Source of the DNA: Octopus vulgaris
Taxonomy: Eukaryota
Length of the DNA: 64,000 bases
Reading direction: 5' to 3'
Assembly (NCBI GenBank): GCA_951406725.2
Contig: OX597834.1
Span: 44,516,001-44,580,000, forward strand
Positions 10,851-20,141 of the stretch are shown in pieces (within the stretch, counting starts at the first letter, position 1; every line of letters starts with the position of its first letter). A program made the translations under genes and the position numbers. The notes beneath the pieces are model-generated. The model saw only the letters and a list, made by a program, of their open reading frames with translations, was not told the DNA's origin and searched no databases.

Positions 10851-11013
10851 TTTTCTCTCCCTGTTTATTTCTGTATTTCTGTGTTCTTTTCTGCCGAAGA
10901 GCGTAGGCTCGAAACGTAAAAGAGTTTCTCACCTTCCTGGGCGTTAACCTAATACATCTGTTTGTTATTTACACACCAGTCTGTGTCTTCTATTCTTTTC
11001 TGTAAATTCTCAC
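10851..11013 (+). mobile_element. Short hammerhead-bearing repeat (Penelope-like terminal fragment), copy 1
   Basis: Homologous to 14930-15086 and 19985-20141. Ends in (TA)n. Confidence 0.7.
10887..10922 (+). ncRNA. Minimal type-I hammerhead-like motif, variant core CUGCCGA
   Basis: tttt CTGCCGA a gagc gtag gctc GAAA cg T A aaag. Confidence 0.55.
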
Positions 11014-11140
11014 TATATATGTACATATATATATATATATATATATATACAGAGAGAGAGAGAGAGAGAGAGAGAGAGATATGTATATATATATATAATG
11101 AGTAAAACAGCTAGTTTTAAATCTTTGAATGAGATACTGT

Positions 11141-11721
11141 ATAGTAAAATCTATTTATCAACGTGAGGTTGCAGTCCTGCGTAGGGCCATGTTACTACCT
11201 TTTAACGTCAGGAAAAGATCTTTTCCAGCTGGTAATCAACGGACAAGCTGTGTCTGCAATATAGTGTTAGCAAGGGACCGTGCTGCTCCCTGGTAGCCAC
11301 TTGCAGTATGAACATACCATTGGTTTTTGGGTAATTTCCCATCCTTATGCTCGCAAATAGATTTTACTATGAAGTATAGTTACTAATAAGATCTTATTCG
11401 CAGATTAAAACCTATTTTACTCATTACGAAATCAGTGATTGTCTGTCACTTCTATATTTATATACTGAATAGGGTCGAGTAAGTTGCCATCTCTAGCCAG
11501 CGGTTGTCCAGCACCGAGGACAGGAAGTTACCAAGAAACCATTTGACTATTGGTACTGCTAGTTGCTAGGAGGTAACAGTAAGCTCTCTTGTTCACAGTA
11601 TATTTCAGACACATATTGTGTGTCGGTAACCAGCTGGAAAAGATGTTTTCCTGGGGTTAAAAAATAGTAACATTGTCCTACGCAGGACTGCCACTTTACG
11701 TTGGCAAATAGAATTTACTAT
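11141..11721. mobile_element. Fold-back/MITE structure: two inverted ~215-bp related arms
   Basis: 11141-11350 aligns to the reverse complement of 11510-11721. Perfect 16-bp TIR ATAGTAAAATCTATTT at 11141-11156 and 11355-11370. Confidence 0.75.
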
Positions 11722-12184
11722 ATATATATATATATATATGTGTGTGTGTGTGTAATGTTTGCATACCTACATACATAAACACTCTTATATATGTGACATA
11801 TGACATTATTCAGTTTTATTTTCAGATTTCGTGCAAATTGAAAGAGACAGTTTCTAATCGAGATCGAAAGCCACTTCACTGAAATTTTAACATCAACAGG
11901 CTATTTTTGTATGTATGTATGTATGTATGTATGTATGTATGTATGTATGTATGTAGGTAGGTAGGTAGGTAGGTAGGTAGGTAGGTAGGTAGGTATGTAC
12001 GTATGTATGTGTGTATGGATGGATGGATGGATGGACGGATGGATGGATATAGGCAGATTTGTATGTTTTATCTGATGCATGTATTGTCATACATATAGTT
12101 GCATGTCTCATCATAGTGATTTATATTTTATGTATGTATGTATGTATGTATTATGTATGTAAGAATATATATATATATATATAT

Positions 12185-12520
12185 TTTACTCTTGTATTTG
12201 TCCCGACCATTTGACTGCAGTCATTCTGGAGCACCGCCTTTAGTCGAACAAATAGACCCCAGGATTTATTCTTTGTAAGCCTAGTACTTATACTATCGGT
12301 TTCTTACGGGTACGTAAACACACCAGCAATCAGCTGTGGGGGGACAAACTCAGACACACAAACATATACCTGCCCCCCACACACACACACACATACACAC
12401 GTACATACATGTATATATATGTAAGACGGGCTTCTTTCCTTTTCCGTCTACCAAATCCACTCACAAGGCTTTGGTCTGTCCGAGGCTATAGTAGAAGACA
12501 CATGCTCAAGGTGCTACGCA
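12185..12520 (-). mobile_element. SINE family A, head missing
   Basis: Reverse complement of the family A body and tail, with internal CA/TA microsatellite. Confidence 0.85.
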
Positions 12521-17243: not shown

Positions 17244-17700
17244 AGGAGTGGCTGTGTGTTAAGTAGCTTGCTTACAAACCGAATGGTTCCGGGTTCAGTC
17301 CCACTACGTGGCACCTTGGGCTAGTGTCTTCTACTATAGCCTCGGGCCGACCAATACCTTGTGAGTGGATTTGGCAGACGGAAACTGAAAGAAGCCCGTC
17401 GTATATATATATATATATATATATATATATATATATATATATATGTGTGTGTGTGTGTGTATGTGTGTGTGTGTGTATGTAGGTGTGTATATGTTTGTGA
17501 GTCTATGTTTGTCCCTCTAATATCGTTTGAAAACGGATGCTGGTATGTTTACGTCCCCATACTTTAGCGATTCGACAAAAGAGACCGATAGAATAAGTAC
17601 TAGGCTTACAAAGAATAAGTCCTGGAGTCGATTTGCTCGACTAAATGCGGTACTCCAGCATGGCCACAGTCAAATGACTGAAACAAGTAAAAGCGTAAAA
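17244..17700 (+). mobile_element. SINE family A, full length
   Basis: A box, B box GGGTTCAGTCCC, CORE-like segment, internal (TA)n(TG)n and complete tail. Confidence 0.92.
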
Positions 17701-19439
17701 GTGTATATATATATATATACATACATATAGATATGTATATGTGTCTGTATATATATATATATATATATATATATATATATATATATATATATATATACAT
17801 ACATACATATATATATGCATATACATATGCATGTTTGTGTGGCTGCATGTGCTTGTGCATGCATATGCGTTTTTGTGTCGCTAAATCATCTCCCATATAT
17901 TATTGAACTCGTGGGACCCTTTTTGTCACCTACATGTAAACTAATTTACCCCTTCGTCATGAATGTACGCTTGTCTATCATAATGCATGTGTGTGTGTGA
18001 AGGTGTATATCTATATATTTTAGTTTTCGCAACCCCCTAACAATTAATAAGTAGGCAGCAATTAATTAAAAGACACAGCCTTAAAATCTGAACATACTTC
18101 TTTTTGCTTTAGTTATTTTTTTAAACTTCTTTCTATATTTATTTTGGTGCCATTATTTTATTATTTTTTCCTCACTTTTTATATGTATTGTTTCGTTAGT
18201 TCCTTTTTTTAATTTTCGTCTGAAAAAAATTTTGCAAATATCATTTGTTTCCATTTTAATTTGTCACTCGTGGAATATTGTGAAATTATCATCATCGCCA
18301 TTATCATGATGGACAAGCAACAAAATCGATATCAAGAACAAGAACAGGAGGAAGAATAATACCATTAACAGCAGCTAAAATAACAAATATTGACAACATT
18401 GCAAAAAAAAACTAACATTATCAAGAGTAATAACATTAACAACAACAATAACAACAACAGAAATAACCCCAACACAGGAGCGGCGACACAGAGAGAAAGA
18501 AATACCAACAACAACAACAAAGAATTTACGAGTAAAACAATACGAAGAGAACATTGAATATTTACAGGAAAGTTAACAGAACAAAAATAAAATATAACAT
18601 ATTAACAGAAGGAAATAAAAGAAAGACAATAAAAAGTTTAAAAAAAAACAAAACAAAAGCAAAGAAATGAGGAAGAAGAAGGAGGAGGAGATGGAGGCTG
18701 TGTAGAAGGGTAAGTCAAAGAACAAATGTGAAATTATATAAATCTATGTGGAAAATCCTGCCAGAACATAATAGTTATTTGATTAGGACATTTTTGCTTT
18801 TTAGAATTTACTGATTAAATTTTTCTCTTATTATCATCTTAGCTGAAAATTAAATTTTAAAAGACTCAAATACGAGCAGAAATCAAAATAAGCACAATCC
18901 AACATCATTCCCACGCCAAACATTCTATTTGATTATTTCTTTACATTCTAAATTTTTGTATTTATTACTGTTGTTTATTTTCTTCTTTTCGTGTCTTTAA
19001 AACCAAAAAAAAAAAAACAAACAAAAATTAACATTTTCTTTTTTTCCAGTATTATTTTCCATCGATTTCTATGTCTTTATCCCTATAATCATTTTCTCTC
19101 TCTCACACACACACTCATATACACACACACTCCACAAGTCTTCTTCGCTTTCTGCTCTTGACCTTTCCTCCATCTAATGATGAAGGCGCGTTTAAATATA
19201 TTGCACACTTTTAGAAACCATATTTTGTTGTTTCTTTTTATTTTACGTTTGATAAGTTGTTGTCATTGGAATGCAGCCATGCTGGACAGCACCTTCATCA
19301 GATATTTAGCCACCCATATCGTATTTCATTGATTCGACCTCAATTGGTCAAATGGCTGCCATTCGTTTATGAGCCATTATAGACAGATCAATGTGAGATA
19401 AGCTGCAGATACTTTAACAAAACAGAAACATTTTACAGC

Positions 19440-19595
19440 TATTGGGTCATTCCATAAGTAATGCATTTTTAAAAAAAAATTTCAAAATTAAGATAAACAA
19501 AGTGCTTTTTTAATCTAAAATTTACTCTCCGACATTTTCTACAACGCTCTTCCATATTTCTGGTAGACTTGCAAGGCACCACATCTTCCAAAATT
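19440..19595 (-). mobile_element. mariner transposon 3' remnant with TIR
   Basis: Minus translation LASLPEIWKSVVENVGE*ILD* resembles a mariner transposase C-terminus. TA followed by TTGGGTCATTCCATAAGTAATG at the terminus. Confidence 0.75.
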
Positions 19596-19984
19596 TATAT
19601 ATATATATATATATATATACATGTTTGCGTGTGTGTGTATGTATATGTGTGCATGTATGAGTACGTACATGCACATATATTTTTCTGTGTATATGTGCAT
19701 GTACATATACATGTCTGTGTGAGTGTGTACGTATGTAGACGTTACGAACGCAGGAGGTTTTATGTCTATGTTTGTGAGAATAGGGGTTGCGTGTATTTTT
19801 TAGTTTTTATCTTTCTTCTTTTTTCTACCTATTAGAGTAAATTCCCTTTTATTCAGCGGTTTTTCAACTCATCTATTGCCATTAATAGCTAACGAGAATG
19901 CATCGTTGCAGTTCGCTCCAACATTCGAAACTCTGAGTACTATAATGGCAACTTACCGATTGTCCTAAATGATATATACACACA

Positions 19985-20141
19985 TTTTTTTCTCTCCCTG
20001 TTTTTTCTTCTGTGTCCCTTTCTGTAGAAGAGCGTAGGCTCGAAACGTAAAAGAGTTTTTCTATTCCTAAGCGTTATACTAATACATCTGTTTGTTTTCT
20101 ACACCACCTATCTTCGTCTTTTGTTTTTTTCGTAAACTCCC
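19985..20141 (+). mobile_element. Short hammerhead-bearing repeat, copy 3
   Basis: Homologous to 10851-11013. Runs directly into a long (TA)n. Confidence 0.7.
20018..20053 (+). ncRNA. Minimal hammerhead-like motif, variant core CUGUAGA
   Basis: cttt CTGTAGA a gagc gtag gctc GAAA cg T A aaag. Confidence 0.55.

Follow-up and report, generated by a model that had tools for sequence, protein, structure and literature searches.

A pyrimidine in place of A6 in the hammerhead-like motif of a short, (TA)n-associated repeat family of Octopus vulgaris

Why a repeat should keep nearly all of a hammerhead ribozyme while lacking a conserved residue of its core is the question raised by a 64-kb stretch of the Octopus vulgaris genome (GenBank assembly GCA_951406725.2, contig OX597834.1, positions 44,516,001 to 44,580,000 of the forward strand; hereafter the window, in whose own numbering all positions are given). 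Three copies of a short repeat family lie in it, each with a minimal hammerhead-like motif that carries a pyrimidine where the canonical box CUGANGA has A6. The source element had probably already exchanged A6 for U, and comparison of the copies suggests that the motif was nevertheless held under constraint. The window is non-coding, with ~35% GC, 19% simple repeat and many short interspersed repeats, which resemble those typical of octopus genomes. A first-pass annotation of the locus had offered two explanations: a functional non-canonical hammerhead, or a fold kept as a recognition signal for a Penelope-type reverse transcriptase (RT) after catalysis was lost.

The repeat family and its motif

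When both strands were scanned with a relaxed hammerhead descriptor (CUGANGA with no more than one mismatch, at least 3 pairs in helix II, GAAA, then CG), 4 matches were obtained in 64 kb, namely the three family copies and one at 23817 in a related (sister) copy; the minus strand of the window contained none. The family pattern matched three times in the window and 0 times in 100 shuffles. The copies were mutually 79–81% identical (blastn). No members beyond these three and the sister copy were found in the window by blastn, nhmmer, pattern or covariance-model searches, and the next window match to a covariance model built from the four motifs had only E=0.17. For copy 3, no Rfam hammerhead family was present among 4 matches at E≤10, and Rfam applied to the window gave just simple-repeat microRNA look-alikes and no hammerhead among the 150 of 370 matches listed. 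The hammerhead call is thus based on the descriptor match instead of Rfam; the minimal motifs of Penelope-like elements (PLEs) may have no Rfam model. A GTDB scan for the family gave 0 matches, and a phage collection gave no match.

All copies share one layout (Table 1). A U-rich stretch of 37–43 nt is followed by helix I (4 bp), C3 U4 G5 Y6 N7 G8 A9, an unpaired extra A between positions 9 and 10.1, and helix II (GAGC/GCUC) with a 4-nt loop; then come G12 A13 A14 A15.1, C G, U16.1, A17, the 3' strand of helix I (AAAG) and ~90 nt up to (TA)n. The cores CUGCCGA, CUGUUGA and CUGUAGA described in the first pass were recovered at 10891, 14963 and 20022, all on the plus strand, with C, U and U at position 6 in copies 1, 2 and 3 and A in none of them. 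C3, U4, G5, G8 and A9 are present in 3/3 copies, and position 6 alone departs from the canonical box. GAAA, U16.1 and A17 are also present in 3/3, in agreement with the G12 A13 A14, A15.1-U16.1 and H17 positions of a hammerhead, as are the extra A, a palindromic ACGU without loop 3 and the U-rich 5' flank. In copy 2, U4-G5-U6-U7 is able to pair with A14-G16.2. The conservation of helix II, GAAA-CG-UA and helix I, also claimed previously, was borne out: over the three copies and the sister copy, helices I and II (4+4 bp) are paired in 32/32 cells, the sole helix changes being a C-G pair that became U-G and another that became G-C. Helix covariation was non-significant with four sequences (141/500 shuffles).

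Two other placements of the core were rejected. A slipped register that restores A6 (core start 3 nt later) requires non-canonical residues at positions 3/4, a helix II of 2 bp and a bulge of 2 nt ahead of G12, and abolishes helix I. If U in copy 3 is instead taken for a base inserted after G5, A8 comes to stand opposite C3; on sequence inspection, this reading also fails for copies 1 and 2.

The 5' ends coincide, the spread of their distance to C3 coming from the insertion in copy 1, and sequence shared upstream of this common boundary was not significant between copies. The (TA)n tract begins 95, 96 and 92 nt past the predicted cut in copies 1, 2 and 3, which agrees with the common end point in (TA)n reported before, copy 2 having just (TA)3 before (TG)n. 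Past the (TA)n ends the sequence differs between copies. The fixed 3' end lacks a clear target-site duplication, the flanks sharing microsatellite words only. The extra A, the coincident 5' ends and the fourth related copy, which lies outside its range, were absent from the first-pass annotation. A second GAGYG-like word, with single changes, was observed 13–25 nt 3' of the motif in all four copies (10923-10945, 14995-15017, 20054-20075 and 23848-23878), where it is a possible competitor for the 3' strand of helix II.

Table 1. Positions of the family copies, the sister copy, their motifs and 3' tracts, and of the composite units, in the window
Feature	Positions	Strand	Details
Family copy 1	10848..11013	+	166 bp; between (TA/TG) microsatellite and (TA)n; 5–6 nt insertion in U-rich 5' part
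Copy 1 hammerhead-like motif, minimal type-I	10887..10922	+	core C3-A9 10891-10897, CTGCCGA; C6 at 10894; predicted cut after 10918; helix I U-G pair at 2.4/1.4
(TA)n-rich tract, copy 1 3' end, presumed target	11014..11050	unassigned	
Family copy 2	14926..15086	+	161 bp
Copy 2 hammerhead-like motif	14959..14994	+	core 14963-14969, CTGTTGA; U6 at 14966; predicted cut after 14990
(TA)3 then (TG)n, copy 2 3' end	15087..15093	unassigned	
Family copy 3	19984..20141	+	158 bp; 3' flank most divergent among the three
Copy 3 hammerhead-like motif	20018..20053	+	core 20022-20028, CTGTAGA; U6 at 20025; predicted cut after 20049
Long (TA)n, copy 3 3' end	20142..20237	unassigned	
Related (sister) family copy	23768..23948	+	nhmmer E=0.00087; U-rich 5' part, motif, ~115 nt to (TA)n; boundaries approximate
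Sister motif	23813..23847	+	A6 at 23820; helix II GAGC/GCUC; other loop; helix I G-C replacing C-G
Composite SINE-like units	6737-7094, 17245-17700, 28602-28929	+	
Composite SINE-like units	12185-12520, 59645-60130	-	

The sister motif has C at positions 4 and 16.1, probably through decay of that copy, and 26/36 motif columns are invariant over all four sequences. Downstream of the motif, the sister copy resembles the family only weakly (17, 95 and 104 of 1000 shuffles), and it is chiefly the motif that speaks for their kinship; together with its two own core changes, this marks the sister copy as a related family and not a fourth member. A6 looks ancestral, the sister copy being an outgroup that kept it, with a compensatory change in helix I. 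All four hammerhead-like elements were located on the plus strand within 13 kb of the 64 kb (10848-23948; span P ~0.03, strand P 0.125).

Fate of A6 and constraint on the motif

Three independent changes from A to a pyrimidine have a probability of 4e-5 to 1e-3 at a generous 10–15% divergence per copy. For any of the 13 core sites to be changed in all three copies, the probability is 0.013–0.044 at 10–15% divergence and 0.0016 at 5%. The earlier proposal that the master element already lacked A6 gains support from the first of these values. It had given the master box as CUGYNGA; U6 is more parsimonious than Y6, because U is found in 2/3 copies and C is one transition away. The simplest history would be a single change to U followed by one transition in copy 1. 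The statistics point to A6 having turned to U once in the source lineage, with the direction indicated by the sister copy and the PLE consensus. A-to-I editing is unable to restore A from U.

Among ungapped alignment columns, 4/36 were variable in the motif and 46/120 in the flanks (16/33 in the 5' flank, 30/87 in the 3' flank; Fisher p=0.0012). The four variable motif columns were 2.4, 6, 7 and one loop base. Permutation for any equally quiet 36-column window gave P=0.007, and the 3' flank alone (30–32/87 variable) differed from the motif at p=0.003. Flank variation was 32–46% for all four bases, which speaks against a T-tract effect. As controls we used overlapping triples from two other repeat families of the window, represented by 6 copies per family that were chosen from 11 and 8 for their greater length, and 0/40 triples reached P≤0.01. 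These data suggest, for three sequences, that the copies came from source lineages with diverged flanks in which the motif without A6 was held under constraint.

In folding models, U6 allows U4-G5-U6 to pair with A15.1-C15.2-G16.2, which otherwise serve as helix III of the dimer. The predicted probability of the G5-C15.2 pair in the isolated 36-nt motif was 0.68–0.98 with U6 vs. 0.02–0.10 with A6, and the 4-bp ACGU duplex was computed at only -1.7 kcal/mol.

Element class, relatives and catalysis

The most fitting description of the family is a short non-autonomous unit derived from the PLE terminal repeat (pLTR), with its helper outside the window. We provisionally assign it to PLEs by the architecture of the motif and the (TA)n ends. 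Other classes were rejected. An autonomous PLE does not agree with copies of 158–166 bp and with the absence of an RT and GIY-YIG open reading frame (ORF) among the 126 filtered ORFs of the window; for a non-LTR retrozyme, the copies are solo and 4–5 kb apart instead of forming tandem units. A B box marks tRNA-derived short interspersed elements (SINEs), terminal inverted repeats mark miniature inverted-repeat transposable elements (MITEs), and a CTRR 3' end marks Helitrons; the copies contain no B-box-like word, have a best terminal match of 6–11/25 and lack CTRR. As for the Penelope link that had been proposed, the architecture, which matches the consensus of minimal hammerhead ribozymes (min-HHRs; PMC4209133), and the (TA)n ends speak for it, whereas an RT partner was not found in the window.

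The consensus of metazoan PLE min-HHRs as given by Cervera and de la Pena (2014, PMC4209133) matches the family at every position except 6. The two have in common a U-rich 5' flank, a short helix I (3–5 bp), an extra base between 9 and 10.1, G10.1-C11.1, GAAA, palindromic 15.2/16.2 without loop 3 and mostly dispersed single motifs, whereas the box is CUG(U/C)NGAA here and CUGANGAH in the consensus. A6 was present in 44/44 alignment rows examined in that paper, a sample biased by a descriptor that required the catalytic boxes. Helix II, 4 bp here, is shorter than in most of its rows, and no PLE ORF adjoins the family copies. Since the box departs from CUGANGAH, we file the family as a variant built like a min-HHR and not as a canonical member.

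A natural pyrimidine at position 6 is shared with the A6C hammerhead of phage Bcep176, in which cleavage persists (0.31 per min at 1 mM Mn2+, 0.004 at 1 mM Mg2+; PMC3088659, PMC7151607). That case concerns one phage sequence, which has C6 and was active when assayed, whereas the present motif belongs to a eukaryotic repeat family, mostly has U6, lacks its own helix III and is known from sequence. The hammerhead of the Poseidon PLE of Anolis carolinensis, PAc (PMC11167929), is likewise copied through uncut. Its RT start lies 85–92 nt past the cut (111–118 minus 26), compared with 92–96 nt for the 3' ends of the family, which is a resemblance only: PAc is autonomous, its core cleaves with protein, and its RT start is an AC-rich stem-loop, in contrast to the U-rich 3' ends of the family. 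Animal non-LTR retrozymes (bioRxiv 10.64898/2026.07.22.740005) are likewise short and non-coding, carry a type-I hammerhead, are argued to be pLTR-derived and commonly occur as solo monomers. They are, however, defined by tandem units with complete motifs, while the family copies are solo, kilobases apart and missed by the CUGANGA descriptor. Naiad PLEs, labeled 'HHR_core' or without hammerhead (PMC8557442), resemble the family in their (TA)n preference and their success without a canonical ribozyme, and octopus members exist; unlike them, the family has retained both helices of the full architecture.

A different (TA)n-flanked repeat is represented by two copies, at 34037-34201 (+) and 41997-42163 (-), which have the canonical 5' box CUGAAGA, the extra A and a G-rich hairpin. 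No GAAA follows the hairpin; the second copy has a GAAAC-GC box ~30 nt upstream. This arrangement resembles the 'HHR_half_core' label of PMC8557442 and may reflect permutation or rearrangement of the motif.

Hammerheads in PLEs are already known, as are their solo copies, their non-autonomous derivatives (bioRxiv 10.64898/2026.07.22.740005) and a natural A6C. In the literature searched, neither a hammerhead with U6 throughout a family nor a PLE hammerhead from octopus was found to have been reported; Lunse et al. (2016) may list position-6 variants. Such a report was also absent from the examined portions of PMC8557442, PMC6765202, PMC6155905, PMC12192606, PMC8967140 and PMC13282606.

All three copies hold ~65–70 nt upstream and 92–96 nt downstream of the predicted cut. 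The cut site is contained in all of them, and they thus came from uncut or religated RNA. Published data on catalysis are as follows. In a mutational scan, single mutants of the CUGA turn all had low activity (PMC9901934). At 0.3 mM Mg2+, A6C slowed one hammerhead from 0.3 per min to 3.6e-6 per min, and the mutant was still active in Mn2+ (PMC7151607). PLE min-HHRs are weak in vitro even with a perfect core (PMC4209133). In the anole PLE, the hammerhead depends on the element's protein for cleavage, its catalytic mutants did not impair in vitro insertion, and the template was mainly unprocessed RNA (PMC11167929). A preference for (TA)n is seen in PLE clades, Naiads are successful in the absence of canonical hammerheads, and the idea has been raised that hammerheads merely parasitise PLEs (PMC8557442). 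Between the two explanations of the first-pass annotation, our analysis favours the second, a fold that was kept while catalysis became weak or was lost, although slow protein-assisted cleavage may occur. A functional variant would also be less new than the annotation implied, since a natural A6C with low, Mn2+-favoured activity has already been published (PMC3088659, PMC7151607).

Repeats of other kinds were also noted in the window. Two SINE-like families are joined by a (TA)/(TG) microsatellite in constant order and orientation, as a composite unit (Table 1). A head-to-tail array of a ~200-bp SINE-like unit occupies 26730-27249, and copies related to it, with an extra ~230-bp 3' extension, lie at 31706-32172 and 43811-44277. 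A GC-richer open stretch of 116 codons amid AT-rich DNA, at 15776-16126 (-), has no Pfam match and is possibly the 3' remnant of a long interspersed element (LINE). Diverged local repeat pairs reading as inverted copies (11144-11345/11517-11718, 22704-22855/23458-23609, and within 22593-23346) are possibly non-autonomous DNA-transposon remnants.

Proposed history, rival explanations and significance

We tentatively prefer, with a little less than even confidence, the reading that an attenuated or dead ribozyme has been kept as a structured signal for a helper RT. The three copies would then be dispersed insertions of a short non-autonomous pLTR derivative, copied into (TA)n by a PLE reverse transcriptase/GIY-YIG endonuclease (EN) presumably encoded elsewhere. 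The source lineage would have changed A6 to U once and continued to amplify and diversify. From the published A6 mutants, U6 is expected to leave self-cleavage very weak or absent, and, by computed and marginal energies, the U6 core may pair with the ACGU palindrome to give a one-molecule stem-loop instead of the dimer. The motif would be held since the helper RT/EN protein likely needs the RNA structure or sequence for template loading. Loss of cleavage would cost little and may help, because the unit must be copied across its own cut site. A bolder form, which we hold to be somewhat unlikely, is a natural conversion of a ribozyme into a signal: one A6U change would have zipped the hammerhead core into a stable single-molecule stem-loop and silenced cleavage, and from it a successful non-autonomous lineage would have arisen in which the fold is still needed to recruit a Penelope-type RT.

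Several results weigh against this preferred reading. The sample consists of only three copies, and 5/40 control triples, which are not independent, reached P≤0.05. The unchanged C3-G8, G12, U16.1 and H17 would also be expected from selection for catalysis. The C6 of copy 1 breaks the core-zipped fold and position 7 varies; this fold pairs in 11/16 cells over the four sequences, whole-element folds zip in copy 2 alone (P 0.78; ~0 in copies 1 and 3), and folding z-scores were ordinary compared to shuffles (-1.1 to 0.4). No remnant of an RT or GIY-YIG endonuclease was recognized by a Pfam match in 126 filtered ORFs of at least 60 aa in the window, the filter leaving out shorter ORFs and those with much simple repeat or low complexity. 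The searched family motifs matched nothing in the PLE consensus supplement of PMC8557442, in which line breaks could hide matches. Finally, the part of the anole RNA needed for insertion lies mostly 3' of the core, and templates starting from ORF +20 worked (PMC11167929), which argues against the motif as an RT-binding site there.

A somewhat unlikely explanation is that the motif is a hitchhiking relic: the source lost A6 once the ribozyme had become dispensable and was amplified, nothing maintains the motif, and its conservation reflects small-sample chance and poorly alignable U-rich flanks. The number of copies (n=3), the choice of the motif after it was seen, the ambiguous alignment of the 5' flank, the two core changes of the sister copy itself and the published view of hammerheads as PLE parasites (PMC8557442) all fit it. 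Yet the any-window permutation already allows for window choice, the motif remains distinct from the 3' flank taken by itself, flank variation is not limited to T, and no control triple was equally extreme.

Unlikely as well, in our estimate, is a slow functional variant, in which the U6 dimer cleaves at a low selected rate, aided by a PLE protein or Mn2+-like ions, and cleavage fixes the other core residues. Of the structurally or catalytically constrained columns, 27/28 are invariant and the sole change keeps pairing; 3/3 copies retain an unbroken ACGU palindrome for helix III of the dimer; and the Bcep176 A6C and the protein-dependent anole hammerhead provide precedents (PMC7151607, PMC3088659, PMC11167929). 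On the other hand, the published data examined for a natural position-6 variant concern C6 and not U6, and a literature search for A6U data returned only a twister paper. Besides, PLE min-HHRs are weak even with a perfect core (PMC4209133), U6 competes for the palindrome, whose duplex is of marginal stability, and both U and C are tolerated at position 6 here.

Local duplication or hopping of one decayed copy, with A6 in the family consensus elsewhere, is very improbable. The three copies lie within 9.3 kb of the 64 kb (P=0.057) and on the same strand (P=0.25), but they share nothing upstream of the 5' boundary, continue differently past (TA)n and have element-exact ends, and a dead copy that was duplicated would not give rise to a motif better conserved than its flanks. 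The least credible explanation is that a canonical CUGANGA decayed independently in each copy: the copies are old (~20% apart) and bear two different bases at position 6, but the probability calculated above is very low, and the remaining 10 A columns in the motif, like this neighbourhood, are otherwise invariant.

The family bears on why PLEs keep hammerheads, given that the ribozymes are weak in vitro (PMC4209133), dispensable for insertion in the one reconstituted system (PMC11167929) and possibly parasitic (PMC8557442). Because it lost A6 and kept the rest, beside a sister family with A6, nature offers here an experiment in which catalysis and structure are separated, and searches with a fixed CUGANGA undercount such elements. 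If the motif is unconstrained, the family is an ordinary decayed PLE terminal repeat. If, instead, a single A6U change did found a lineage that needs the silent fold, a whole class of hammerhead folds, selected but catalytically silent, would have escaped descriptor-based ribozyme censuses, and the hammerheads of PLEs would serve a non-catalytic role.

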